A stretch of DNA of 55,695 nucleotides, the filler included, from Dirinaria sp. TL-2023a (Eukaryota): the NCBI GenBank assembly GCA_051941275.1. It is 3 parts of 3 records of this genome, joined end to end, with 100 filler letters (N's around TTAATTAATTAA, not from the genome) between each part and the next. Parts side by side here need not be neighbours in the genome. Positions count along the whole stretch, not along the records: positions 18,653 to 37,139 come from JAVEBF010000382.1; 2 more parts are not named here. The stretch is one strand, 5' to 3'. The notes below the pieces were generated by a model. That model was not told where the DNA came from. It ran no database searches and was given only the letters and a program-made list of their open reading frames with translations. Positions within the stretch are counted from its first letter, which is position 1. Each line of letters opens with the position of its first letter. The translations under genes were made by a program, and so were the position numbers. Of the stretch, positions 2,270-49,958 are shown piece by piece.

Positions 2270-4715
2270 TTATAACACATCGACAGAAAGACTCCTTCCA
2301 TCCAGAGAAATATTCGCCATAGATTTCAGGACGAAATCCGCGCGCGCAGCCTCAAAGTCCAATTTCCCCAAATCTGACGGATACGCACTGTACGTCCTCT
2401 CGATGATCTTGTTTAATTGCGTCTCTCGTCTAGCTGTGTGCTCGTTCTTAGTTTGGAATGGGGACCACGTGGCACCGATTTGCCTCCGTCCTGCAGCTTC
2501 TAGAGGAGGAAGGACGGTGTTGGCGAGGAAAACCGTTTCGGTGGTATCATGAATACCATTGAAGCAAAGCGTAAAGAGCTGGCTGATAGATAGATCGCTC
2601 TGTATATCTTCTTCAAGGCAGCTGTAGGCAATGATCGTAAAGAAGTGGAATAACATTATAGAATGCTGCCGAAAATTATATAAGAAGGCGTAGCACTCTG
2701 CTAAATCCTTCAGTGTTTTCCGGATGCGAGTCGCAGTACTGGCTAAGGTGGTGTAGTGAGGCTCAAGATCTGCTGGGGAAGGGGGAAACGTGAGGATTAG
2801 GTGGATTAGGCCTTGTAAGAGAGTACCACACTCCATGCTAAAGCAGTTTTGAACTAGGTTGCAATATATAGCGCGAAGAACAAAAGGTAGCACTCACTGA
2901 AAGAGAAGATGTTGTGGCGAAAGGGAAGCATTTTGGGCCATGGCTGGAGCCAAAGAGTCATACCAGCTCACCAAATGCTCAAGGTGGTTCAGTAGTTGTT
3001 TCCATGAAGTCAACCCATAAGGTTTCGCATTGTCGTCATTTGGAAAGGCAATGCAGGTAACCTCATGGATCTGCATGTAAAGTTCACATTTGGCGGCTTG
3101 TACAGCATTGAAGTAAGCTGAATTCGCCGTATCAATTTTTGACGAGTTCGATATAGAATTGGTGGAACCTAGCCTCCAATTTCCAGAGTATGGGTTGGGA
3201 TAAAAAGGGCCGGATACGGTCATAGGTGGAAGTCGAAAGTAAAAACAACAGGTCCTTAGACGGTTAGACAATAGAATTTCCTGAACAGAAATAAGACGAA
3301 CACTCACTTCTCAAACCTTAGTAGAGCCCACTCGGTCACAGCGCAGCCTCGGAAATACCGAGGATCCAAGCGCCGTAAGGATTCATACTCTTGGGGTAAT
3401 ATCGGTTGCTTGAAAAAGCCCAACTCTCTGCCCATACGAATTGCTTGATAGAGGAATAAAAACCCTATTTTATCCTTACCTTCGGTGTTCAGAGTGGCTG
3501 CAAGTATACACGCAGCTTGAATCGCAGTTATGCTGGCTTTGTGCTCCTCAAGCTGCCAAAGTCGTCTTGCTTCTTGATAGAAGTGAGAACCAATGTTTCC
3601 TTCATCCCAAGGCTGATGTCGATTTTGAACCTGGTGGGAACTATGCTAGAAGAACGTCAGTCTAGTCTGTACGAGGCCCAAAGTCTACGTCAGAATTGAG
3701 CTTTACTCACAGCAGCAAAGCATAAAATTGAGTTGACCAATAGAGGTGAACAGAAAGCTTTAGAACCGGCGACTAGGTCGTCGAGAAATAAATCTTTGTC
3801 AACAAACGCGAAAATTGGATGCTCGATAATGAACTAGAGCCGAAGCAAGTCAGAAAAGCGATGATCTTCACAAGGAACTCTTGTCCAAGCGCGAGCAGAC
3901 ACTTGGTCGAAACGACTATCCAAAAGGTTCTCAAATCCAGGTAAATCAAGTAACGAGGGGACCGAAGTTCGACTACTCTTGTCACCTCGTGTAGTCAGAG
4001 AGATGGAGAAAGACTTCTTACATGGCTTTCTCATCAACTTCTAGAGTCCACCCATTGGATAGAGTAATTGAGCTAGATTGTATTGCAGGAGTACTATGCC
4101 TGCCCAATCCAAGCTCTGCTGGAGCCAGAACCCAAAAATAAAGATCATGCTCACGTTGGGCAAAGCTCCATACAGGCGATTTGGTTGACAGGTTACTGGG
4201 TGCCGCTGAAGCTAACCATGGCTGCATGAGGAGATCACCATCTTACATTAATCTTAACACTGAATCAGGATCATTTCCCCTTCGAATTCGTTGCAGGATG
4301 CCGAGAGCGTCCGGTTCAGACCTGGATTGCAATTGATCGAAAAGCTGCTGCAGTGTCTCTAATTTTGCGTGCTGGAGCCTGGCATAATTTTCCACAGCCT
4401 GTTTGCTTGCTCGAAATTCATTATATTCACACAGTACGTTCTGCTTCCGACAGGCCGAACATGATGGCTTTTGTCCATCACACTGGGAGAGAACGAAATC
4501 CAACCTCGTTAATCAGCAAATTCACCACGGATTTTCCACGCCCTGTGGAATCATGGCCTCACCTTGGATTTTCTCTTACGGCAGTTCTCACACGCTTGCT
4601 CGATTGTTTCTCGTTTCTTGCGAAAGGGCTGTTGAGAAGAAGACTGATGGGTAGGAGATGGCGCAGACGTCGGTGCAGTTGAACGATGCCGCTTATAACC
4701 GCTTGATGACGCCAT
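2270..4715 (-). pseudogene. Zn(II)2Cys6 transcription factor (NirA-like group, fungal-specific TF domain), probably inactivated
   Basis: Exon 1 ends ACENCRKRKSK and splices to CDGQKPSCSACRKQNVLCEY. Middle region reads WTRV...FVDKDLFLDDLVAGSKAFCSPLLVNSIL and FYQEARRLW. In-frame stops interrupt conserved motifs: TAA 4243-4245 (LRLM*DGDLLMQ) and TAG 3834-3836 (LLRL*FIIEHP, normally LYF). Confidence 0.8.
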
Positions 4716-16403: not shown

Positions 16404-17183
16404 TCAGTGATCACAGCAAGTACACTGACACTTGCCAGCTCTTCTTGGCGCTACACCGTCCTGCTCTGGCGCTGGCAGAGGCAGCGGTGGTGGCTGATCC
16501 ATCAATCTCGGGTCAGTTGGGGTCTCCATGTCCTCAGGCCTCGCCATCGGCGGCGTAGAGGGGTCCCCATTCTGTGCAGCCTGGCGACCTTCCAGCCTCG
16601 CAATCTTCGCTTTCAGGTTATAAACATCCTGCGCGGTGACATCGGGGTTCCACCTCCTCTGCAACACCTCCAATACATCCTTCGGGCTCCTGGAATCCTT
16701 GAACATCTCCTTCGCTTCCTCCATGGCTTCCCTCGGCAGCTGTCGCAAGCTCGGGTGCTGCGTCGCGCTCTCACTCCGCTCATGTCCATTGTGCTTCGGG
16801 TTCATCATCGTCAACACCCATGTTCCGTCGTTCGTCCGCTTGGCGCGAGCTTTCCAATTGCAGCCGACCAAGCGCCGAGTGCGGTTCTTGCGCACGCGTG
16901 TTTCCGGGGTGAGTTTCCAGTGATTGACGTATTCACCGCCTCGGTCGCAGCGCACATACGCGATGCCGCGTTTGTAGTTGTTGCTGGAAGTGACGCACGC
17001 GTAGCCGTGGGCACGGGCGTGAGATTGGCAGGCGGTCATCAGGTCTGGCAGAGAAGCAAAACTACCTTCTGGAGGCGGTGGCATGCCATTGAATGGGTCT
17101 GTTTGGTCGATCTGGTCCGCTTGGTAGGGGCCATTGGGGGGGTTGGGAGGAGGATAGTATTCCTCCTCTTGGAGATAGTCCAT
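16404..17183 (-). CDS. FAR1/AFT-type (Mutator transposase-derived WRKY-GCM1 fold) DNA-binding protein
   Basis: Intact 259-aa ORF with ARAHGY...VRCDRGG...GCNWKARA...WVLTMMNPKHNGH...HPSLRQL, followed by an HTH-like segment (SPKDVLEVL...TAQDVYN). No DDE domain, and no TIRs seen. Confidence 0.8.
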   Translation of the reverse strand: MDYLQEEEYYPPPNPPNGPYQADQIDQTDPFNGMPPPPEGSFASLPDLMTACQSHARAHGYACVTSSNNYKRGIAYVRCDRGGEYVNHWKLTPETRVRKNRTRRLVGCNWKARAKRTNDGTWVLTMMNPKHNGHERSESATQHPSLRQLPREAMEEAKEMFKDSRSPKDVLEVLQRRWNPDVTAQDVYNLKAKIARLEGRQAAQNGDPSTPPMARPEDMETPTDPRLMDQPPPLPLPAPEQDGVAPRRAGKCQCTCCDH

Positions 17184-17346
17184 TGAAGGGTGGTCGAGAC
17201 CCTCGAGGGTCGAACGACGTCGACGAGACGAACCGGGATTGATTTAATCGAGTATCGAATTTGATATGGGGAGAACGCTGTTGTATCCGTAAAATGGGTG
17301 ATTTGGAAGGACAAGTCGTGGGTTTAAGAGGGCAGGAGAGGGCTTA

Positions 17347-19317: not shown

Positions 19318-20352
19318 CTACCCATCGACCAACTCTCCAGCAACATCAACCACAATCTTGCCCCTCGCCCGCCCCGTCTTCAACCGCTCAAACGCCTTTG
19401 GCGCTTCCTCAAACCCAAATCTCTGATCCAGCACCGTTCTAACCTTTCCCTCCCCCATCCACTCCGCGATCTGCGCCAACTCCTCAACTTTCGGCTGCGT
19501 AAAAAACCCTTCCGCAGTTCCTTTCATCCCGCCCAGCCAGCCTGGCCACAATTTCCTCTTCACGTTGTCCACAAGCCCGGAAACCGAGAGATCGCCCGCG
19601 ACTTTCACAATCACCGCGCCCGGCTTCAAATACTCGCCACAGCGCCAGATCAGTTCTTTGTCTTGGCCGACATTATCAGCCGCGTGATCGAATTTCGTTT
19701 CACTGGCTATTAAAGCATCGAGAACCTTCTCTTGCTTATAGTCAATGACCTTATCCGCGCCGAGCGACTTGCATAATTCGACGTTCGGAGTCGAGCACGT
19801 GGTAGTAACATGGCACCCTACCGCCTTAGCAATCTGTATCCCGAAAATTCCTGTGCCGCCAGAGCCTCCATTGATGAATATCTTATCGCCGCTCTTCACG
19901 CGCGGAACTATGCTTTGATACGCTGTCAACCCCGCAACCCCAATTGTAGTGGCATCAACCAGGGATACATTCTCCGGCAGCGCAGCAGTACCCTTCGTGC
20001 TCGCGACAGCGAACTCCCGCAAGGCACCGCCCGCGATGGGTGTGCTGCCTGCGACGCCGAAAACCAATTGGCCAGCTTTGAAGGAGGATCCCGGGGCAGG
20101 AGTCACGATCGTCCCCGCGAAATCGATGCACGGGGTGAGTGGTTTGGAGAGGAAGCGCGTGACGAGCGGCATTTCGGCCGGCTTGTAGTCGACTGGGTTC
20201 AGAGCTGTGAACTGGATCCGTACGAGGTGTTGGTCTGTCTTAGGGGTTGGGAGGCGCGCGGAGGGGTTCAGGTGAAGGTCTTTTTCGAGCCCGTTGCGCG
20301 CGCTGGTGTATTGCCAGGCGCGCATTGTTGAGGGTGGGGTTGAGGATGCCAT
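19318..20352 (-). CDS. Medium-chain dehydrogenase/reductase (NADPH:quinone oxidoreductase / enoyl reductase-like)
   Basis: Single-exon 344 aa: ALNPVDYK, DFAGTIV, AGLTAYQ, FINGGSGGTG, LGADKVIDY, GRARGKIVV. Confidence 0.92.
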   Translation of the reverse strand: MASSTPPSTMRAWQYTSARNGLEKDLHLNPSARLPTPKTDQHLVRIQFTALNPVDYKPAEMPLVTRFLSKPLTPCIDFAGTIVTPAPGSSFKAGQLVFGVAGSTPIAGGALREFAVASTKGTAALPENVSLVDATTIGVAGLTAYQSIVPRVKSGDKIFINGGSGGTGIFGIQIAKAVGCHVTTTCSTPNVELCKSLGADKVIDYKQEKVLDALIASETKFDHAADNVGQDKELIWRCGEYLKPGAVIVKVAGDLSVSGLVDNVKRKLWPGWLGGMKGTAEGFFTQPKVEELAQIAEWMGEGKVRTVLDQRFGFEEAPKAFERLKTGRARGKIVVDVAGELVDG

Positions 20353-21507
20353 TGTTAGGGATTGCGGGTGTAGATGTGGGTTGTTGCATTGTGCGGTGGT
20401 GAAGTCGTTGTTGTTATATAGATTTTATTATCGTAAGTTTGAGAAATGCCTGAATGCACAGCATTGGATCCGAGGGATCAGACAGTTCGTGTATGACGGC
20501 ATTCAGGAGTCGGTGGAGAGTAATGCCGGCCCGTCGGATGAATTCCTCAGCCGGCGGGCTTACTAAGTAATTAGCTCTGGTGGCCGATGAGGAAAGTTCG
20601 GCCGACTTACCTTCAGATCGCTTCTTTGTTATTGATGTTAGACTATGGCTTTTTATCTACAGTCCTCTCCCTGGAATTAGTGTGAGGACCGTCAACTTAC
20701 CTCTACAACCAAGTATTACGAGCGTATGCGTTCATAACCCGCCTGTCGAAGGAAAGTCTACGTCTTACATTCGCTCCACAATTGCACGAATACACAGCCG
20801 ATGGTCACATGACGGCCAACTCAAGAAGCTCTTCATGGAAGGAGCTATGGGCTGTCTTCTTGAGCGTAGGAACCCGAGAGTGAAGGCTAGACATTTTGAC
20901 ATGGCCGATCTATGTGACATTATCAAAGAAGTCTAGTAATTCGGAAAGATCGGGTGTCTCACCCGTAAGTGTACGGCAGAGTACCTAGCTCCTATACTAG
21001 GATGATACCTAATGTGCTGGGATCCAATTTGGGGCAAGCAAGCATCTACGGGCTAGAACGCCATCGCATGCCTTGTAAGCCCAGCCTTGTCAGCAGATAT
21101 GCACCTATCGAGACTTCAATGCGAGCCTCAGAGAACTTGCAAGGCAAAATAGATATTTGGAAGCAAGGGCATACAGGTGCATTTTCGAGACTAGCTACAC
21201 ATATGCTATGGAAGCTAGCCTCTAAAGGTAAAATTACAAAAGTCTGATTGCAAGCTGTCTCAACAGAAGCCTCGTCCATATCGTGACAATCCCTCCGGCC
21301 CCCCCAGAAAACATCAACCATTTCATATCACGGATCACCCCTGAGTACTTGGAATGCAGAACATCAAATGCTAGTGTCGGTGGAATTTGTGTCCGTCGCC
21401 GTAAGGGTTGCTTTGAGCGGCGTCAGTCCATCTAAGCAACTTTGATATAGCTAAAAGATGAAGAATGGACTTACAGCGTATAATCATGCTCCTGGTCTCT
21501 CCCTTGA

Positions 21508-22504
21508 CTAGGACCCCGTTGGTGCAACCTGGGCCTGGTCCAGAGTCTTAGTTGGCTCGTCTCCCGAACCCACGCATTCAAACCCTCCCACCTTCCCTCC
21601 CGCCTTTGCTGCTGGCGCAATTTGGAACGCAGGGCAGTGGTGGCGGCGGCGGCGGTATTCTCCTACTATTATTTGCCCTAACACATCGCGGTTTTCTTCA
21701 GGCTCAGCTTGCCTCGAGGTTATTTCTCGCTTAAATTTGCCAATAAGGTTAAAGTCATAACATTCACAGCGTCCGTCAGTCAATCGTACGGGTGTTTCGC
21801 CTGCAGAGCAGTGGAGGTGCGAGCATACTCCTCTCTCTCCTAACCAGCCGCGCTTTTCTTCATGCTCAACTTGCTCCAGGGCTATGTCTTGCTTCTCTTT
21901 GGTACTCAAGCTCTCACCAAGCTCAGTAGTTTGACTAGCGACATCCCGCTTGCTTCCGCCAGCGGTCTCGCAAGCACATTCTCCGTTAGGCTTTGAAACA
22001 CGAACAAGGAAGAAGGGGCAGTGATAGTTCGAGCATGGCCCTTTCGCTACTATTAATCCGCGCTTTTCTTCATGCTCAGCTTGCTCCAGAGCTATGTCTC
22101 GCTTCTTTTTGCTACCCGAGCTCTCATCAAACTCAGTCGACACAGTTTGAGTAGCGACATCCCGTTTACTCCCGCCCGCGGTCTCGCAAGCACATTCTCC
22201 GTTAGGCTTTGAAACAGGAACAAGGAAGAAGGAGCAGTGATAGTTCGAGCATGGTCCTTTCGCTACTATTGACCCGCGCTTTTCTCTAAGCTTATACCCC
22301 AAAGTATAATCAAATTCATTGTCCGCCGTGTACTCTTCTGCAGAAGAAACCAGTCAACCATCATAGACTCACACGGTCGACAAGTCTCAACTCACCATGA
22401 CGGTTCTTTCGAATAGAGAGTCCCTTAGGTTGAACGGTTGGAGCTGCGAGACTTGAAGTGACCACGGAGGCTACCAGTACGGTAGCTAGTAGCGTTCGAA
22501 GCAT
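21508..22504 (-). CDS. Secreted Kex2-processed repeat protein (KEP-like) with three Cys-rich core peptides, ~312 aa
   Basis: Signal peptide MLRTLLATVLVASVVTSSLA; 58-nt intron 22338-22395 (GTGAGT...TTGAC...CAG) joins in frame. Repeats of 216 and 210 nt, with cores bounded by EKR...KR. Confidence 0.85.
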
Positions 22505-25314
22505 TGTGAAGCCTTGGAGAGAGGCTAACAGTTGGAGTAGTGACAAGTAATGCAGAGGAATGAAAGGTCTTGCTAGATCTTGGTCGTACACATGTATGAG
22601 GAAGCCACGTTTCAGCGCAGAAATCGAAGTGGGAGAGGATACGGAGAAAGAAAGAGAATCTGCTTTCACGAATTATAAGTAAGATTGCCAAGATTCTTAA
22701 CAGTGTTTATCCGGATGATCGAGCCATTGAAGGAATATGCACAGGCGGTGAAGTCCTTGTTCCGAGGCTGAAATGCCAGCAAAAATAATGTTGAAGGATT
22801 CATTGAAAGGACGTTCATTGGAAATGACGGATTATTCCTCCATGTGAAAATTGGATTCCTATCCCAATCCACTACGCCGTGGTGTGTTCTGCAAGAAAGG
22901 CACAATAGGATACAGGAGCGCTTCTCTGTGAATCCTCATGAAAGTGAGCTGTGTCGATGCTTTCCTAAGTTCATTTACTCGTCGACTCTGCCGAAGCCTC
23001 CTGCATTTGAGGTCAATAAAGTACGACAATTCAATTGTTCTGATTGAGATACGAGGGATTGGTGGTTTTTGGAGGGTATGGTGTCCTTTCGAACGATTAC
23101 ACTGAGCGGGTGTATTAGAAAAATCAATCAGCATCAAACACGAAAGTGCATCTTTCCAGGTCTTTGGTTGAGAACCTGCTTCGACTCTGTGAGAAATCCA
23201 ACACCGGCGCTAAGTATAAACGTGCGAGAGCATGAGGGGATTGGGTTTTTTTTATACAGACCTCTCTTTTCTTCCCCATGTACCGGTGCAGATTACCTCT
23301 CAAGATATCGATTCCGGGATAAATCCCTCTGGTCTAGAGTGTAGGCGTGGACGCAGGCAGAAAAACTTCCTCTTGCAGGTCCCCAAGGATCGCAGTACGA
23401 TTCAGAGCGCCTCACATGAAGAGCAGCTTACGTTGAGTCGTTGACATATCTCCATCGCATGAAATAATACCAGATAGTGGCTCATTCTTCCTAGCCCTAC
23501 CCGCTTTGGCCGAGTGGGAGGTTAATCTTGGAGAGAACCTCTGGGCAACTGGCGAGGGGGCAACTGACGGAGCTAATCCATAGGGAATGAGTTGCGAGGA
23601 GATGCTTAGGCTAATTATCTAGCCGGGGTTGAGGCCTTATCTTCTTCCCTGTCCTTAGGTTGGAGCGAGGTTTTTTTTGGTTCCCCTTTTTGTGGGAGTG
23701 TGGTGCTTCAGACTTTGATCCCACCACCACTACCAAGCGTTCCAGCCACGTGACATTATACCTAACTTGCTTCCGTAAGCACCTCCATCGTTGCCAACCA
23801 TATCATCTCGTGCTTGTACGAGTGAGCACTCAGGAAGTGGGAGTGTCACAAGTACAAATATCGCAATGCGTGTGTTTTCCAATGAACGCTATTGATTAAT
23901 CCAAATTATGTTGGCCTGTTATCATGAATGAAACAGAGAGCTGTGACCTGTAGTGATGAACAAGGTATTTTCTCCTTCATCCATAAGAGTCTCCTAGCAG
24001 CTACCTACTTCTTTGACAGATCGCTGATTCTGTAAATGAAGGTCGGCATGCAACACTCTTCTTTGAAAATCCAGCATCTACTCCGTAGAGGTTCAGAGAT
24101 TGCGATTCGCTAATTATGTACGATATGTGACGCCTCATCGAGGCGCAGGTGCATATCTAATCATATCAGCCACACCACTTGTCAGCCACGCTCGGCTTGG
24201 TGTTCCTAGCCACCAAGGGTCTAGAAGAGGCTATTAGTATGCCACGAAAAGCCGCAAGACACAGTATGAAGACTGTAGGTAGCGCGCATTTCACGCTTTC
24301 TCTCCGTACTCTCGTCGCGGGCACTTTCGTGTCCATTGAGAAGGCTCTCGTACATCTGAGGTCTATTCTCCAAGGGACCAATCACACAGTATGCTGGATG
24401 TTCGCAACGATCAGATCATAAACAACGGATCGATTATTGCCAGCTCAGCCTCTGTCTGCAACCCAATTTATCCGATGGGTGAACGAGGTCATCCAGCTGC
24501 ACCCTTGTAGATGTGGCTTGAAGCACTGCCTTCTTTTGCAGCTCTACCAAGCTACAACTTTTCGCGAATTATGCTGGCACCTGCGTAGAGCTTTGGTGAA
24601 AGGTGATCAGGCTAAGTCGTGCTTACAGACGTTAGCACCATCTCCCTCGTGTTTTTGTCTGTATGTCGAGCTCTCTGTAGATATGATAGTCTTTAGTCAT
24701 TGGAGACCTCTTGATAAATTATTTCACGACCATTGTTCCACCATAGGATGGCCCACAACGGCTAGGCTTTGCGCAAAGCTTCACGTCGCATTGTGCTCAA
24801 GAGATAAGGCCTGTATCAACACCGCATGGAGTGCTGCTAATGGTACTTTGCTTGCTCATACGTAGCTTTGAGGAAGGTGGTGCCGCTTCGCAAGGCCATG
24901 CAAACAAATCGAGCTGGTGTGTGTCAAATGATGGGCTGTACAGATTCATTAGCGTGCGCCATTGAATGATGATGACCACTGAGGGCCGAGAAATGTGGCG
25001 TATAGTTAGCCACTGGCATGTTCGTTCGAAACTGCTGTCGCCGCCCAAAAGTGCATCTACTTCTGGTAGATAGCAATCCTAGATGAAGATTACCTGGGAA
25101 TTAGACACTTTCGCAGCAGCTCCTGCCCCCACCATCTCACATCGCTGACCACCATAGCTGTGGATCACTCAATTCAGAAGACAAGGCTGATAATGGACTT
25201 ATCGATGCAACGCCAATCAGCCTTCGTAGACAGTGTTGGCGATCAGCGTATAAGAATGCCTGATAGGTACTGTTCTCTTTCGCCTCGCAGATCTCCCCAC
25301 ACTATCCACGGTCA

Positions 25315-27796
25315 ATGGATCCTCTGTCTATTACTACTGGCGGACTCGCAGTGATCGGCGCTATCAAACAAGCTGTGGAATGCATCCAAAAGCTGAAAGC
25401 CATTCACCAAGCTCCAGTTGAAGTCGAGTTGCTGCTTGAAGAAGTTGTCGATCTACACGAATTGTTGGAACATGTCGAGGCAGCGCAAAAACCGCCGGAA
25501 TTTGGGCCACTACCGACGGAATCGCCGAAATGTCTAGACCGGCCGATCTCCCGCATCTCGACGAAGCTGAGAGAGCTCGACCAATTACTTCAGTATCACT
25601 CGGCTCGGATGCGTCGCAGTAGATTCGACTTCGGCTGGGTGCGGGGCCGGCAGAGAGCTAATGCTTTGCGCCGAGATTTGAAGCTTCTGCGTATGAATTT
25701 GTGCACTAGCCTGTCTGCGACTACCTCGTGAGTCGCCACCACTCTCTGCATCGCCCCGCATTTGCGACTCAACGTACTTATTGTCCTGAAGCCAGACCGT
25801 CACCCGTGTCGAGTCTGCTGTTGAGCGTTTTAGCATTGAACATATAAAAGCTACACAGCTGCTTACGTCGTTCATCTGTGGAACTTCTTCTGCGCAACAT
25901 TGCTCCGAAAACCCGCCATTTGAGGTCTGTCGCGAGGACGGTAGCCTGCATTGTACGTTTCAACATCAGCTTCACTCATCAAAGAGTAAGCGCCTTACCT
26001 CGGTACAGCATCCAAAACATTTCTCGAAGATGACTCGTCATCCTCCTCAAGCTCGAAAGGCTGTCAAATTGGAAGAAATCAAGCAGCCAGTGCAAATCTA
26101 CGCTAAGAAACCGAATGCTGCATGCGAACCTTGGTGCAGTTGTGCTTGCCATAAGAAGACTGTATTAAGGCTAAAGCATCCCAACATTGTCGGTTCTTTT
26201 TCCGTAGCGTATAGTGGTCTACCATGGGTTACAGCAAGCTGCGACCAGAAAGCGTGCCAGAGCAGATCAATACCCAGTGTCGCAATAACTGCCCAATTTC
26301 CCGAATGGTTTTGGAAACGGTATTGGTCTTCGTCTTTCTCCTACACGGCAATGTGTGGACCTGGAATCAATTACTCCAGATTACCTCGCACCGTGAGCTG
26401 GTGGGAGCTCTGGCGACACGGTATAGATGGTAACCTTCGCGCTATACAGGACCTTTTCTCGCAAAAACTTGCATCACCTTGGGACGTTCAGGCTCTGGGC
26501 GGCTCTCTCCTGCACTATGCCGCTGGTCACGGCCACTGGGATCTTGCGAAATTCCTTGTGGCTGAGGGGGCAATTTTGGACAACGAAGACGCTTTCAACG
26601 ACAGCCCCGCAAGTTTGGCGTGGGGGAAAGTCCTCGAAGGCTCTCTTGCTGAGGATGAAGCGTCCATGGTTTCTCGCATGTTTGCCGACACCGATTATTT
26701 GCAAACGCGACAGTTCACCGTTCTTCACAAGATCGTGTTGCGCCTCATTCCCAGGACAATCGAATCCGAATTAGCTTACTCTACACGCGATCTAAACGCC
26801 GTGGATTCGACCGGTCGTACTTGCGTGTCCTGGGCTACTGCGCGCGGTGATGAGGACGCATTGAAAACGTTGCTCGACTACGACCCTGACGTGAATCTCC
26901 CGGACGGCCAGGGTAACACGCCTCTGCACTATGCACGCAACAGCGCATGTGTCGATATTCTCCTCGACGCCGGCGCAGACATTACCGTCCGTAATTTCTT
27001 CGGTCATACGCCCTTGCACATGGTCTGCCGAGGCACCGGCTCTCCCTCGGTCCTTAAACGGCTCAGAGAAGCCGGGATCGACATGAATGCCACGGACAAC
27101 AGCGGCGAAACCGCACTCACCAGTGCCGCGTTCAGGAAACAAGTAGAGTGTGCTCGGTACTTGATCCAGCAGGGCGCAGACGTAGACCGTGGGATCGATG
27201 GACACGGCAACGCGCCAATCCATATGGCTCTCCTTTCGAATGCTCCAGCAATATTAGAGCTACTTTTGGCCCATAACGCGAATTACACGCGAGCCAATGC
27301 CCATAATCAGACGGTCTTACATCTGGCGGCATGCTTGGGCGATGAGGAGACCGTCCGAGTGTTGATCACGCATGGGCTCCAAGATATGGATATCAGCGTC
27401 CAAGACGTCGAAAGCAGAACCGCAGAAGACCTGCTCCGCGAACGCGGAGACGACGATACCGATCCCAACTTCAAACTCAAGTTCCGCCAACTTTTAGAAA
27501 CCATCGCTGCAGCTCAGCACCCCGTTTCACCAACGCGTACAGCAACGGGTGCGAGGAAGTTAGGAGGAGAATTGCCCACGGAAAAAGCGGCAATCGAGTT
27601 CCTCAAAGACGGCTCCGGCGTACATTTCACTCCTCTCTCCTCCTCTGATGATGATGACGAGAATGAAGATTACGAATTCGATGATGTTTATGCAGAAAAT
27701 AGAACTGATAATACCCACAGCACCCCGGCGGTGCTGTTTTATGATGCAGTGGAAGAACTGAATGAAGCTCTGCGCGTGGTGGAAATCACGGTTTGA
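25315..27796 (+). CDS. Ankyrin-repeat protein with N-terminal HeLo-like (fungal STAND N-terminal) helical domain
   Basis: MDPLSITTGGLAVIGAI...APVEVELLLEEV N-terminus; intron 25728-25791 restores frame; CEPWCSCACH Cys cluster; ankyrin repeats (GSLLHYAA, GNTPLHYA, GHTPLHMV, GETALTSA, QTVLHLAA). Confidence 0.85.
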
Positions 27797-37692: not shown

Positions 37693-39051
37693 GTCGGGGG
37701 TTGACGGAGGGATCTGGTATGTTTGATGCCTGCCTAACATCTCGACCTGCGTCACAAAGATGGATTACTTAGCCAACGCTGATTTCTGAGGAAGCTTGTA
37801 CTCGACATTTAACTACTTAGTGATCAAGTCTTATTTTTCTCGGATTTTGTGCCCGAAAACTGCTCATGGTACGATGGCAAGGGTATATCCTGAAAAAGTG
37901 TGGTGATAGATTCGACGTCATATAGCATGTGATCGAGGGGCGGTCAAATCTGTCGTCGTATTTGAGCGTGTAAGGGATGGTATCAAGAGTAATCGCAAAC
38001 GTTGGGCTGCCTACCCGGACCTTGAAACAGGACTGAAACAGGACGAAAAAAAAAACCCACCGAGAGACTGAGCTTAAGTTGAATGATAGACATGCTCGTT
38101 CAAGGGTCAGGTATGGGAAAGTCTGATAGTGTCTCTTGGAGGAGTAAGGTAGGAGTACCTACGGAATCTTACGTGGCATTATTCTGCGCTCTTGGTCGTA
38201 TGGCAGGCACTACAATGACAGATCATGTGATGGTTGTGCGCAAGAAAGGATGGAAAAGTGGGATGGGGAATTTGCCAATTTTCAAATTTCCAGATTGGCA
38301 ATTGTCGCGGAATTTCGGGTTTTGAACTTTTGGCCGGGATATTGTAAGTTTGGTCGCCTGCACAGGGTCTTTGTGGGGGTCGTCGCTGTGTGGGATGAGA
38401 GAGGCTCGTCTCGTCAACTGCAACGGCCAACGGTCCTCGGTCCTGCTGCACTGAACCTCCCACCTGGGTTCTGCTATAACGCCAGATGCTTATCAAAGGA
38501 TCATTGCGGCATACAGTACATACTTTCAGTAATGGAGCCTGCTTCCCCAGACCAACCGAGGGAAATTTGTGACGCGCGGGGATACGAGTACATGTACCTC
38601 ATGTATGTCATATCACTCTTGCCGAAGCGGCTCGATCCAATGGCCGACCATTGTAGATTATTTGTGCGAAATATTTTTAACGTTAATTGGTGGAGGTAGT
38701 GTATTACTAGATCTGGTTTGCATAAGGTTTGCAAACCAAATGTGGGAAAGCCCCTTTTTCCGGGCTCGGGTCGATGCGAAACAACCCACTACACGTCAGC
38801 TAGCAGACTTGAGGAAACGAACCAGATGCCGTCGCTTCGCGAATATTCTCCACAACCAATTGTCAGGTGGCTCAACCTTGTTCAATTGCCACAACGGTGG
38901 CTGGCTGTCCACGCGGGAAATCGCCGAACCGAGACGGGATCTGCTGGGACTTCCATTCTCAATCAACCCAAAATACAAGTGCTATCAATAATTTCCAGCC
39001 TGACTGTTGGGGTGAAGGTGAGAGGACAAAGCTTTCGAGACTTTGAGAGTA

Positions 39052-39754
39052 CCATAGCGGTTGTATACGAGTCTGTATTACCGTATATTGATGGTTTCTT
39101 AGTAAACACGGTCATTTGACTGGTACAACGGTATAATGACGTGATATGGTAAAAATTCAGAGACGCCATTGAAGATTTACGGTCATTTCTAAAAAAACGG
39201 TCATTTGACGGTATTCGCAATTTAGCGTGTAATAGAAAAAGACGATAAACGTGGATAAACGTCTCCAATTTTTTTCAGATTATATATACTTTTAAGGCTT
39301 GGCACAGGTAGAAGTAATATTAGCTTAGTTGTAAATAGAGAATAGATAACAAATCAATTTAAAAATATCAGTGTTCGATTCTCACGCGTGAAATTAATTT
39401 GTGTAGTGTGCCTTATACTCTTACTTTATCTAAGATACCTTACATTATAAGTCTCCTCAAGCTCAAAAGATTTAGCAGTAAAAGATCGTCCAAATAATTT
39501 TTTGGAAGTAGAGAGATTAAGCGAATGGCGGTCATTCTACAGTCATTCTACGGTCATTTTACGGTCATTTCACGGTCATTTCAAAGTGAAACGTCAACAA
39601 TGACGTTCCACTTTTTTGGAACGTTAGAATCATTTTGACCGTCTCAAAAAAGCAATCAAACGTTTACGGTCAACTAAAAATTGACGACAATGGAATGTTA
39701 CCGTAGAACTATCGTCTGATTACCGTAATCAGAACACTCATTGGGCCGCTATGG
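39052..39754. mobile_element. Non-autonomous DNA transposon (MITE-like) with TIRs and TA flanks
   Basis: TA|CCATAGCGG (39052) ... CCGCTATGG|TA (39754), with weaker inverted similarity for ~55 bp. Repeated ACGGTCATT motifs; AT-rich noncoding interior. Confidence 0.7.
39528..39582 (+). repeat. Five tandem 11-bp units (consensus ACGGTCATTYY)
   Basis: gcggtcattct acagtcattct acggtcatttt acggtcatttc acggtcatttc. Confidence 0.9.
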
Positions 39755-40295
39755 TAAGATTCACGTGTTAATCAATCGCAGAGGAGTTGCGGATACTAGG
39801 TCCTGACCTGGGCAGACCATCGCGTGGCGTAAAAAAGAACAAGGTATTTCTGCATAAGGTACGGAGTAACCTCATGTGGCTAGTGCGTGATCCATGCGCT
39901 TCGACAGGGTCGAGGCGGGTGTGAATGGCTATTGGTCAACTGACCCCTGGGCGGCTCAAATCTAGCGTCGAAATGTAGTGCCGCTGGTCGTCGACTCAAT
40001 TTCTCAATCTCATTTGCTCATTTTAAAACAATTGAATGCGTCGACCACACGGTGAGGGGCCGCGCGTTGCCTCTAGAACCATAAAGAAGGACGTGAAAGC
40101 CGCTTAATGAAGCTAGCTACAAGAGCTGCTGGTAAATGCGTGACTGTCCTACCCTATTTAACTTGCCTTTCTTCGTTCTTTTGAAAATGCTCATGGTTAA
40201 CACTCGCCTTGCTTCTCTCGAATTTGCTATCACCAAAGCTTCACAATTCCTTCAATAATAAGTAGATTGGTCACTGCTATCGGCTGGAGACAAGC

Positions 40296-41020
40296 ATGCA
40301 TTTATTCACTCGGATCAAAACCAAGTTCCTTTCCGCGTCGCAACCTTGCCCACCCCACCAACTCCACAAAATCGAGAATGTGCAAGAGATACTTATCTGG
40401 CCCCTGTCTGATAAGAACCCAAGAAATTATCTCGCCTTGTTTGATACTGGAGCACAAATAAACTTAATCATCCGCTCCATTGTCAATGACTTGGATCTCC
40501 CAATCTACAAAGATTATACTGGACCCGAAGTCGTCGAGGTCGTCGAAGGCATGAACTTTCTGGTTAACAATTATGTACAACCCAAGTGGCAGCTGCACAT
40601 AGGTCAAACATCACATCGGGAATTCCCCTTCTTCGTGGTCGACCAACTACCTCACAGCCTGGGTGTCGTGCTGGGATACCATGTCATGAATGACATCGGC
40701 ATAAGTCTTCATGCCAGCAAGATGGCTCTTCCCCTCTTCTTAAAGAGCGGAAAAGGTTCGTCGTGCCTCCTCGCTTCGGAAGGATAGTAATGTGACTTGA
40801 CCTATTAGACAGCAACGTCCAAAAGCAGCCTCAGCACACTAGTCAGATCCTCGATGGTGCCAGACGTCGGGAACAGAGGCAGAAGACGCTTGATCAAGCC
40901 CATGGGTATACGGCAAAGCCATCTGAACATAGGACGCCACAACATCAGCCATCGCAGCAGCTCGCTAAGGAAAGAGATAGCGCGTACTCTCAGTCGCAAA
41001 ACAAGACCTCACACAAATAG
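40296..41020 (+). CDS. Stand-alone retropepsin-like aspartic protease domain protein
   Basis: YLALFDTGAQINLI catalytic motif, FFVVD...VVLG downstream; intron 40756-40808 (GTTCGT...TAG) to a Gln-rich tail ending TAG at 41020. The true start may lie upstream. Confidence 0.7.
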
Positions 41021-46743: not shown

Positions 46744-47825
46744 AGATCAGAGGAAGGACGATGGAAGGCGACGTTGAAAAGAAAATTATAGAACAAGAGG
46801 TATTGATGCAAGTATTTACTGGCGATCTTGCGTATTATCTATACTGCATTGGTTGACTAAGTAAAAGAAGGTCTATACAAGACTTACATACTAGACATTA
46901 CCTAGCAATTGCTTTTTTACTTGCCTCGGTACTCAGACCTACCTAAGTTTTGGTCACAAAATTTCTTAGGGTTGTCGCCTGATTTTTAAGGTATCAGCCT
47001 TACCTAGGGTTTGTTTACGCCTAATTAGTTCTAGCTCCTAGCAAACTCTTCTCCATTGAGGTGCAGCCATACCGCACACTACTGCTCAACAAGCTCCGAA
47101 ATATCAGAAAGATTCCCAATCATCTTGTTGCTAAGAGAACGCTTCAAAGCTCATCCCAGAACTGCAGCGAAGATTCGCCTCAGTGGCAAAGCCACGAAAC
47201 AAAGCCATTTCATTTTCTAACCTACATTATCTTCACTTACCTCAGGGTACTCTCCAGGAGTTTCTATCCTTTCTCATAGCCATGTTGAAAGCGCTCATGA
47301 GGGCTACAGAAGCATACATTAGGCAATACTAATGATAGTCTCAGTACGAATTGCACGTACTATCATCACCATTCACCCTCGTAGGCCATTCTTCTGAAAC
47401 CCGAGGTGTTATTTTTTCGAACATGCTCAGAATTTTCATCCCCAAATTCAGCATGCACAGGCGAACGCTTTTAACTCCTATGCTCCTTTTCTCTCCTCTG
47501 CGCCGTAGTTCATTGCGGCCACGGACTTGAAGGCAGCAGTCGGCGGCGGTTTTTTTTGGACGGGTGTCTGATTCCAACTCATTTTATGCTTAATGTGAAT
47601 GAACCATGGAACATCCTATGGGTCATCGCATGTGAAAGCCAGCCTCTGTGTCGGTGACCGACAAATGAACTGAGCATGTGTGAATTATTTAGGCAACTAA
47701 ATAATCCTTTCATCGAGGGCAGAATACGTTTTTAAGGACTTCCTGGCCTCTTAATAAATCCTCTACAATATATATATATATGGGCAATTGTTCTCCGTCA
47801 ACTCAATCAACCTAGGGGTTACACG

Positions 47826-49958
47826 ATGGCTTTCAAAGGCTTCCTTCCTTCTCCTGGTGCATCCCCCAAAGGATCACTATCAAAATCCTCGGCCAAGCGA
47901 CGTATATTCCTCCGTGAAACCGAAGACGACAGCGGGCCAATGTACATCGAAGAATACATTTACAGACGAGACCGCTATAGGTCTTCCAGTACACCTTTCC
48001 CTTTCCCGCTACCTATGTCGCTCGAGACGATACCGCCGCATCTTGCCTCGATATACAGGATAGATTCAACCCTTCGGCAGCTTATCAGCAAGAGACTTAC
48101 GGATCAAGGTATTCAGGCCCAAACCATAGAAGTTGGCTTACAACACAAACATGGTTATCCTAAGAGTCAGTATTGGATTATCCTTCCTGCTAAGCAAGCA
48201 CACACTGACCTTGTCCGTATAGATGGGGACAAAAAAGTACCTGTTCTGCTCATCTTGTGTGACGCGGGGGAGAGTAATCCCCTAGAGAGGTGGTCAGCTG
48301 CACGACGCGACATCACGAAAGACCTTGACGACAATGGCCTTTCAGAGCTTGAGGTTGAGATCCAAGACCGTGCCCGTCACTACCAACCTTCTCTGTTTCC
48401 GATCCACCCCAACAACAAGGCTGTGGCACTATACAAGTCAATTCGCGGAGAATTACTTGTCCGTGTCTACAACAACATTGGGCATAACTGGCAAATTCTC
48501 TCACTTTTCGAAGTGGGGCGTATGTCCAATTCAAAGAAAGCAACTATCGTTCTCATGGTCTCACCTGTGACTGAGGCAGATTGGAGTATCCTAAAGGCGT
48601 CCCTTGAAGCCATCGTCCGTAGGGAGCAGGAAAAGTTTGGGGTCAGCTTACAAGTTGAGATAATGCCTGGCGGCTGCCGAGCCATGCCGCTCGAGGAGGA
48701 GGAACAAGAGCCAGACATGCCGGGCCAATCTTTCGTGCACAACTACAATACCTATCCACGCCAAGGCACTAGCATTGGTGTTCTAGGAGAACGGGGCGGC
48801 GGTACCCTTGGAGGTTTTTTTCGCATGGTTTCTCCGACAAAAATTCACCTAGGTTTTCTTACTAACTCTCACGTCGTCGCTCCACCACGCACTGCTTCCG
48901 AAAAGGTAAGGACGACATATGACTTTCAAGGCTTACGATACAACGCGCCAACAAGCGATCCTGGGCGAACGTGGCTGTAGTACTTCGCAAGAAAGGATGC
49001 CGAAGCCACTGTAGCTCAAGCAATTGCTATTATCGAGTCACGCAGAAGCCTAATAGATGACGAAAAAAGCTCAGAGCAAACACGGGAGGAGAGAGGCTTA
49101 TCAACACCGGAAACAAGGGCCAATCTTGAAGCAGTCATAATTCAGCTTCGCCAGGCGATTCAAGCAACGGAAGAGATTTTGAAGAGTGCTAAAAAAATGC
49201 CGAGATTATACGGTCGGACTATTCTCGCATCTGGAAGAGCCCTCACATCCGGCTTGAAAACGTTAGATTACGCTTTTGTCGAGACGTCTGAAATTGGTGA
49301 TACTCGTCTCCCTGACCAAACCACGTTCGATATTGCCAGAGCAGACCCGACTCGGCTTGGTTTCTCTCAAGCATTAACACTGCCTCCCAAATATAGCCAG
49401 TTCTCCAATATACGACCAGGGCAATGGTACTTTAAAGTAGGGCGAACGACTGGTCTCACCAGCGGGATATGCAATGGCGTAGAGACCTGGGTTAGACCAA
49501 CAAAGCAGCATACGCTATTCAACGCGAAAGGTGGAGTCGAGGCGATACGGAACAATGGAAGAAAGCTCAAGACAGAAATGACTGAGCTTCAGCAAGGGCA
49601 CAGCATAGTAAGACTTGTGTACGAGGAGGATGGGAAGCCAGTGGAGATGGAAGGTGAAGAGGGCCTTTACTATGCTGATGAATGGGTAATCGTCAATGGG
49701 TCTGTCAACCCGCTTTCCTCCAATAAGCAAGAGGATTTCTGTGCTTCCGGCGAGTCGGGAGCGCTGATCATTGATACCCTTGGTCGTGTTGCTGGGCTCT
49801 TGTGGGGCGATTTGACAGGCTTTTGTGGGCCTGCTGAAAGACATCGGCCATATATTGGGGCTGGGATGGTGACAGACATCAACGATGTCAAGTCCTTTAT
49901 GAAAGGAGCTCTTGGTTGGTCCAAGGATTCCAACGTTGACGTCCTGCGCTGCCCGTAG
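47826..49958 (+). pseudogene. Trypsin-like serine protease (Ssy5/Nal1-like) interrupted by one in-frame TAG
   Basis: GTLGGF, LTNSHVV (His), LDYAFV (Asp), FKVGRTTGLTSG, DFCASGESGALI (Ser). The two ORFs share a frame, separated only by TAG 48978-48980. Likely 57-nt intron at 48166-48222. Confidence 0.8.

Follow-up and report, generated by a model that had tools for sequence, protein, structure and literature searches.

A putative Kex2-processed repeat protein of the lichen-forming fungus Dirinaria sp. TL-2023a, predicted to release three four-cysteine peptides

Kex2-processed repeat proteins (KEPs) of fungi have been defined by Le Marquer 2019 as proteins that carry a signal peptide and three or more internal repeats separated by Kex2 sites (PMC6339444), and by Umemura 2020 as proteins with at least three tandem repeats of at least 8 and at most 100 amino acids (aa) between KR, KK, RK or RR pairs (PMC7329392). 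According to the latter survey, 2560 of the 7878 KEPs examined were without homologue (PMC7329392); the former reports repeat sizes of 3-352 aa and peptides of 37 aa for Rep1 of Ustilago maydis (PMC6339444). Published KEP types (Table 2) also include some that give hidden Markov model (HMM) matches to Cys-rich domains, such as Chitin_bind_1 and Hydrophobin_2. This work concerns a gene of Dirinaria, a lichen-forming genus of the Caliciaceae (Lecanoromycetes), located in a stretch of 55,695 nucleotides (filler included) made up of three joined parts of the Dirinaria sp. TL-2023a assembly GCA_051941275.1; the whole stretch is called the window, and all positions refer to it. The gene encodes a new, almost relative-less putative KEP, of a type that is numerous and mostly orphan. 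A preliminary description of the gene had taken KEPs to have mostly short cores, which holds only in part, given the size range, the Rep1 peptides and the Cys-rich types cited above. As so many KEPs are already known, a large number of them orphan and some with Cys-rich domain matches, the novelty of the gene is lower than that description implied.

The gene is on the minus strand and consists of two exons (22504..21508). Scripted splicing of 22504-22396 to 22337-21508 gave a coding sequence of 939 nt, corresponding to 312 aa plus the stop codon, with 36 codons in exon 1 (ATG at 22504) and 275 codons in exon 2 (stop at 21510-21508). The 312-aa translation is letter-for-letter identical to the database protein P0003, annotated by NCBI as 'MAG: hypothetical protein Q9191_003327 [Dirinaria sp. 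TL-2023a]', and therefore the intron and the gene model agree with an independent annotation. A single 270-nt contig from one of three DNA runs was identical to positions 21308-21577; the rest of the gene stretch is without such cover, and the contig adds nothing to the model. The features of the gene are the following:

21508..22504, minus strand: whole coding region of the 312-aa precursor (spliced translation identical to P0003; stop at 21508-21510)
22445..22504, minus strand: signal-peptide-like N-terminus, aa 1-20 (hand rule; cleavage predicted after aa 20)
22338..22395, minus strand: intron of 58 nt, GTGAGT...CAG, phase 1 (taken from the sequence; the junction reproduces the NCBI protein exactly)
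22276..22444, minus strand: Cys-free pro-region, aa 21-57, with the intron inside, ending R-E-K-R at the first KR before core 1
22168..22275, minus strand: core 1, aa 58-93, 36 aa, C-x4-C-x13-C-x-C (HMM domain of 68.2 bits; next KR at 22162-22167)
22060..22161, minus strand: acidic spacers A1 (aa 96-116, ending KKKR) and B1 (aa 117-129, ending EEKR), with charges of -4.2 and -5.1
21952..22059, minus strand: core 2, aa 130-165, 36 aa, 33/36 identical to core 1 (68.4 bits; next KR at 21946-21951)
21850..21945, minus strand: acidic spacers A2 and B2, aa 168-199, internal dibasic site lost, charge of -7.1
21733..21849, minus strand: core 3, 39 aa (aa 200-238), diverged, with 36% identity to core 1 and the Cys spacing kept (65.2 bits; next KR at 21727-21732)
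21511..21726, minus strand: decayed fourth unit, consisting of a piece similar to spacer B that ends in ENR (aa 241-253) and a tail (aa 254-312), with a weak HMM domain
21848..22285, minus strand: 216-nt tandem duplication, 2.1 copies, that gave units 1 and 2 (Tandem Repeats Finder, 89% matches, score 689)

All seven KR (Lys-Arg) dipeptides of the protein (aa 56, 94, 115, 128, 166, 198 and 239) are located at unit borders, with KR on both sides of each of the three cores. Shuffled versions of the sequence contained a mean of 1.51 KR, and seven or more were reached in only 3 of 20000 shuffles. The pattern C-x4-C-x13-C-x-C was matched by 3/3 cores, which start at 22275, 22059 and 21849 and begin with G-S, G-L or G-W. 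The spacers are acidic, with net charges from -4 to -7, and spacer B ends in EEKR right before the next core. At the N-terminus, a basic residue at aa 3 is followed by a hydrophobic stretch of 14 residues (aa 4-17; Kyte-Doolittle mean of 2.01), and the -3 and -1 positions ahead of aa 21 are occupied by S and A. With this signal peptide, judged by hand rule (published KEP pipelines used SignalP), repeated cores of 36, 36 and 39 aa and KR flanking every core, the predicted precursor falls within both published KEP definitions. In our judgement, it is probably a Dirinaria KEP that would be cut in the Golgi into three two-disulfide peptides.

The fourth unit has ENR in place of EKR ahead of it and keeps two Cys, and it was weakly matched by an HMM built from five cores (i-E 0.4). 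These two Cys are located in its tail of 59 aa, together with four consecutive CGC codons (RRRR) and an internally duplicated 12-nt stretch. The duplication (21583-21606, 2.0 copies in tandem) and the CGC run (21643-21654) are slippage-type changes, which suggests that the tail may be no longer constrained. The preliminary description had claimed a gene at 21508..22504 with a signal-peptide-like N-terminus, a pro-region and KR-bounded cores, an intron at 22338-22395, three cores with the above Cys pattern (22275-22168, 22059-21952 and 21849-21733) separated by acidic spacers, and a fourth unit deprived of its KR and of two Cys; the spliced translation agrees with this anatomy in every coordinate.

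When the 312-aa protein was compared by phmmer with 1.84 billion cluster representatives (E<=0.001), only two proteins were obtained, the query itself and P0004 (E 7e-21), a 192-aa fragment from an ENA metagenome that is encoded on a contig of 28487 nt. Word-seeded searches of 5.8 billion clusters, in which 484, 25 and 4447 candidates were scored, one of them with a two-sequence profile, also yielded P0003 and P0004 only. The identity between both proteins was 41% over 140 aa by BLASTP (41-43% across searches), and the order of elements in P0004 (core, dibasic site, spacer A, spacer B, dibasic site) is that of the Dirinaria precursor. P0004 contains two complete cores with the pattern C-x5-C-x14/15-C-x-C, with charges of +1.9 and +1.1, and one partial core like cores 1 and 2 (12/19 identical). 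A dibasic pair is kept at the five alignable core-flanking sites of P0004 (KR, KR, RR, KR and KR), and the KR inside the spacers is replaced by ER. Eleven of 36 residues are identical at the core-2 position and 6 of 35 at the core-3 position, with spacers 42-57% identical, and the only invariant columns of the five complete cores from both proteins are four Cys, one Val and one Gly. In both proteins, KR pairs are about 5-fold more frequent than in shuffled sequences. As its sequence begins in the middle of a core, P0004 probably represents a truncated gene prediction of the prokaryotic style on a contig of eukaryotic origin, perhaps from a lichen fungus. A scan of JGI metagenomes with the alignment of both proteins matched 140 pattern stretches, none of which was confirmed. 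In the JGI scan with P0004, a further locus (L001) was discarded as a false positive, an 8-residue pattern word inside an ORF (open reading frame) of 797 aa that, judged by eye, resembles a bacterial fatty-acid-oxidation enzyme. A second copy of the core was not found in the window with the five-core HMM among 1440 ORFs of at least 25 aa.

The array grew by 216-nt tandem duplication, in accordance with the intragenic duplication proposed in the preliminary description. The core plus KR of unit 1 differs from that of unit 2 by 6 synonymous and 3 non-synonymous changes (dS 0.26, dN 0.035; p=0.008 in a binomial test against neutrality). In spacer A, no synonymous and 8 non-synonymous changes were counted (core against spacer A, Fisher p=0.009), and in spacer B one change of each kind; dN/dS on the cores was about 0.13. 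Thus, the cores and not spacer A are under purifying selection, and these counts, which are small numbers, point to the cores as the selected part. The comparison of core 3 with core 1 gave 12 identical residues out of 30 over the ungapped part, with the four Cys kept (hypergeometric p=0.018). Since dS is about 0.9-1.0 and dN about 0.7 when core 3 is compared with cores 1 and 2, core 3 derives from an old duplicate.

The family has no Pfam, PDB-sequence or fold match, which bears out its earlier designation as uncharacterised. At E<=0.01 no Pfam family was matched by the precursor, and the matches that appeared up to E 10 were meaningless; the PDB sequence search produced 0 matches at E<=10. 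Structure prediction of the cores, proposed as a check in the preliminary description, gave a beta-hairpin. The AlphaFold2 model of core 1, calculated from the alignment of the three cores, had a mean pLDDT of 70.3 and a pTM of 0.37, with a short helical turn from Cys1 to Cys2 and a beta-hairpin formed by strands 18-22 and 28-32, the second one carrying Cys3-x-Cys4. In the whole-protein model (mean pLDDT 36.5), the three cores alone reached 50-61, each with the same hairpin, and the spacers stayed below 50, so that the model fits an arrangement of beads on a string. This moderate-confidence core model and the invariant Cys framework suggest a predicted fold with two disulfides. The best Foldseek match of the core 1 model against the PDB had an E of 1.2. 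VIA-align against 48161 chains gave four matches at Z>=2 (2.1-2.4, best 2.4), too weak for a claim of shared fold, corresponding to SP11/SCR, two spider toxins and a squash trypsin inhibitor, all of them small disulfide-rich peptides. In the ESM Atlas, the whole protein scored 0.79 to a cluster auto-named 'Pheromone 1', under the level that the tool counts as more than a lead, and the core alone gave no usable match.

Because the precursor falls within the KEP definitions, entry into the endoplasmic reticulum (ER), disulfide formation, Golgi cleavage, trimming and secretion would be expected. The predicted signal peptide would bring the chain into the ER, where each core would fold into a small beta-hairpin and two disulfides would pin the N-terminal loop (Cys1, Cys2) to the Cys3-x-Cys4 strand. 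A Golgi kexin would then cut after each KR, and the C-terminal K and R would be trimmed by a Kex1-type carboxypeptidase; kexin cleavage followed by Kex1-type trimming is an established fungal pathway. Finally, peptides of 36, 36 and 39 aa would be secreted along with the acidic spacer fragments. The computed monoisotopic masses of the three predicted peptides with two disulfides are 3611.594, 3706.715 and 4320.971 Da, and their predicted net charges are near-neutral (-0.2, +0.8 and -1.1, respectively).

The last and least secure step concerns the role of the products, which may act on a specific target of another organism and serve as defence molecules, toxins or signals to a lichen partner. 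A target-specific action on another organism is suggested because the peptides are near-neutral and the cores vary greatly, inside each precursor as well as from one of the two known precursors to the other, with Cys scaffold, spacers and cutting sites retained; the presence of several core types per precursor and the very narrow distribution have also been counted as a pattern of molecules directed to other organisms. A classical cationic membrane-active peptide fits poorly, given the near-neutral charge predicted. Consequently, we think that the products would be neither membrane-lytic cationic peptides nor a mating pheromone, and a target-specific defence or partner-directed peptide is favoured. 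Conserved propeptides combined with fast-changing mature peptides are the pattern of animal toxin and host-defence precursors. A bolder proposal is that this gene and P0004 represent a lineage-restricted 'cassette' precursor that would deliver several different two-disulfide mini-proteins per transcript, with a fold that has no solved relative, conserved acidic propeptides and fast-changing mature peptides that would act as selective toxins or recognition signals towards the algal partner or the thallus microbiome; we regard it as distinctly unlikely.

Several points weigh against the processing of the precursor into three active peptides. Secretion, cleavage, disulfides and activity of the products are all predicted from sequence, and the near-neutral charge gives no hint of a known activity class. 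The family has two members, one of them a fragment, and therefore the conservation arguments rest on one comparison. Confidence is moderate for one structural model (core 1, 70.3) and poor for the other (whole protein, 36.5), and they derive from alignments of only 3 and 2 sequences. In addition, the P4 residues at the seven KR sites are R, G, K, E, G, E and K, not aliphatic, and Kex2 is said to prefer an aliphatic P4 in the SnTox3 preprint (bioRxiv 10.1101/2020.05.27.120113).

This P4 composition would also suit a protein that is secreted whole or partly cut, for example by removal of the pro-region alone, as a modular wall-associated or adhesive repeat protein whose Cys-rich domains would be joined by flexible acidic linkers. 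With its KR-terminated pro-region, the precursor resembles the layout with a Kex2-processed pro-domain (K2PP) described in the same preprint (bioRxiv 10.1101/2020.05.27.120113), and the beads-on-a-string model fits a linker-domain protein equally well. However, dibasic pairs flank every core and are kept in P0004 while the cores change, KR is enriched in both proteins, spacer A evolves without constraint, as expected of discarded pieces, and the layout satisfies both KEP definitions; this possibility is thus rather unlikely in our estimate. That the gene might be non-functional, a decaying or spurious ORF in a repeat, is suggested by the decay of its C-terminal unit, with KR and two Cys lost, a codon microsatellite and the 12-nt duplication, but the reading frame of 281 codons is uninterrupted, a canonical intron is present, the dN/dS ratio on the cores is low (about 0.13) and a homologue at 41-43% identity has the same architecture, all of which makes a non-functional gene very improbable.

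Cleavage at KR could also be followed by enzymatic tailoring, as in RiPPs (peptides ribosomally synthesised and modified post-translationally) of the dikaritin/ustiloxin type or of another enzyme-tailored class, in which the cores would be cyclised or otherwise modified. The KEP architecture is common to ustiloxin-type precursors, and a DUF3328 gene was reported near 22% of the KEP genes surveyed (PMC7329392). A double HxxHC motif has been named as the DUF3328 signature (PMC12048977). In the window, this double motif was absent from the 1440 ORFs of at least 25 aa, with a single motif in three short ORFs. Neither DUF3328 nor tyrosinase, methyltransferase or cytochrome P450 families were matched in 31 of the 62 ORFs of at least 120 aa across the window, or in 58 of the 134 ORFs of at least 60 aa between 13 and 33 kb; ORFs overlapping large annotated genes and those before 15.7 kb were excluded from the Pfam scan. 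The statement of the preliminary description that no DUF3328/UstYa gene is nearby holds accordingly for the scanned part of the window, in an ORF-wise scan that intron-split genes could escape. For the same reason, an assignment to the dikaritin/ustiloxin type was rejected, no UstYa-like gene having been found nearby within that scope. Tailoring genes can sit outside the cluster, but the cores of 36-39 aa with an invariant four-Cys framework are also unlike the short dikaritin cores, and we consider a modified RiPP precursor highly improbable. An alpha-factor-type mating pheromone precursor would also have a signal peptide, repeats and KR sites, in line with the name of the nearest ESM Atlas cluster. 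Known alpha-pheromone peptides have, as described in PMC6339444, 9-24 aa with XA/XP Ste13 signatures after KR, whereas the cores of the Dirinaria precursor have 36-39 aa, start with G-S, G-L or G-W and are of three types in one precursor. With too great a peptide length and Ste13 signatures absent, this candidate was rejected and is extremely improbable. The interpretation as a KEP processed by Kex2 is supported, with processing and function predicted.

The precursor gene stands alone, its neighbours being oriented divergently and convergently. On one side, a zinc-type alcohol dehydrogenase/quinone reductase-like gene is found (19318-20424, minus strand). The region 22505-24421, about 1.9 kb upstream of the precursor gene, contained no ORF with a Pfam match, and the next upstream gene (25267-27796, plus strand) encodes ankyrin repeats (E 3e-47) together with an N-terminus that weakly resembles PigL_N (E 5.6e-05, under the Pfam cut-off), a layout that recalls fungal STAND/NLR-like proteins. 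Farther out in the window, genes for an alpha/beta-hydrolase (lipase-like), MutS, a WD40 protein and eIF3m are present. Three pairs of long ORFs in the same frame split by one stop were also observed (47736-49958, plus strand; 38148-39119, plus strand; 2270-3310, minus strand), without meaningful Pfam matches, since five of these ORFs had none and the sixth (2894-3310) had one under the threshold; the stops could be intronic, or the genes could be broken. Two other segments, 40266-40787 (plus strand), with a weak match to a retroviral-type aspartyl protease (E about 1e-3, below the Pfam cut-off), and 16404-17243 (minus strand), with a weak match to a FAR1 DNA-binding domain (E 0.0025, below the cut-off) and an overlapping antisense ORF of 264 aa, may be mobile-element remnants.

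Very little is known about the peptides secreted by lichen fungi, which are difficult organisms to study. The genes described in a survey of lichen RiPP clusters have a signal peptide and a Kex2 site, without repeated cores (PMC12048977), and a recent preprint describes large lineage-specific repertoires of predicted antimicrobial proteins in lichen fungi. The Dirinaria gene is a small, testable peptide candidate, with three defined peptides of exact masses. If the peptides were active, they would represent a new class of fungal disulfide peptides at the fold level; if not, the gene would be one more orphan KEP among thousands. If the 'cassette' proposal were true, it would offer the first protein-level handle on partner control in lichens.

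Cysteine-stabilised alpha-beta defensins have six or more Cys, including a CxxxC paired with a CxC. The Dirinaria cores share with defensins and small disulfide-rich toxins a C-x-C strand that is predicted to be tied to an upstream Cys pair, but they have four Cys instead of six or eight, and the first pair is separated by x4 (x5 in P0004) and not by x3. A defensin identity was rejected, both the number and the spacing of Cys being wrong relative to this general definition, with no Pfam match. In the literature searched, no fungal polyprotein of four-Cys peptides with this pattern was found described, although the supplementary KEP lists of PMC6339444 and PMC7329392 may include similar Cys-rich types.

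The ustiloxin-type and dikaritin precursors have the KEP layout in common with the Dirinaria precursor (PMC7329392), and differ from it in that the Dirinaria cores are long and Cys-rich, not short, with no DUF3328 gene in the scanned part of the window. K2PP effectors such as SnTox3 have a signal peptide and a pro-region that lacks Cys and has a dibasic Kex2 end, followed by a disulfide-bonded mature part, as is predicted for the Dirinaria protein, and the pro-domain was proposed to aid folding (bioRxiv 10.1101/2020.05.27.120113). However, their mature part is a single domain, while the Dirinaria protein has three small units with their own flanking sites. Membership in the K2PP effectors, which would imply a single folded mature domain that follows one pro-domain and accounts for over half of the secreted protein, was discarded, as no larger domain is predicted. 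Outside fungi, the Ib-AMP precursor of the plant Impatiens balsamina also gives several four-Cys, two-disulfide peptides from one transcript, but they are basic peptides of 20 aa with CC and CxxxC motifs, released by another protease system and without homology, so that the likeness is one of design alone (PMC4695807).

Described KEPs, and the Rep1 precursor in particular, share with the Dirinaria precursor the signal peptide, at least three repeats and KR between them; its cores of 36-39 aa are inside the reported range, and orphan status is common among KEPs. Searches by phmmer and with word seeds, which gave P0003 and P0004, revealed no sequence relation to any described KEP. Unlike those proteins, the Dirinaria precursor includes diverged core types in one chain, its cores are bracketed on both sides with two acidic spacers between them, and its predicted products share an invariant framework of four Cys and are expected to fold. 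By analogy of design, the Rep1-type precursor of Ustilago would be the closest described system, and the plant Ib-AMP precursor the closest one outside fungi.

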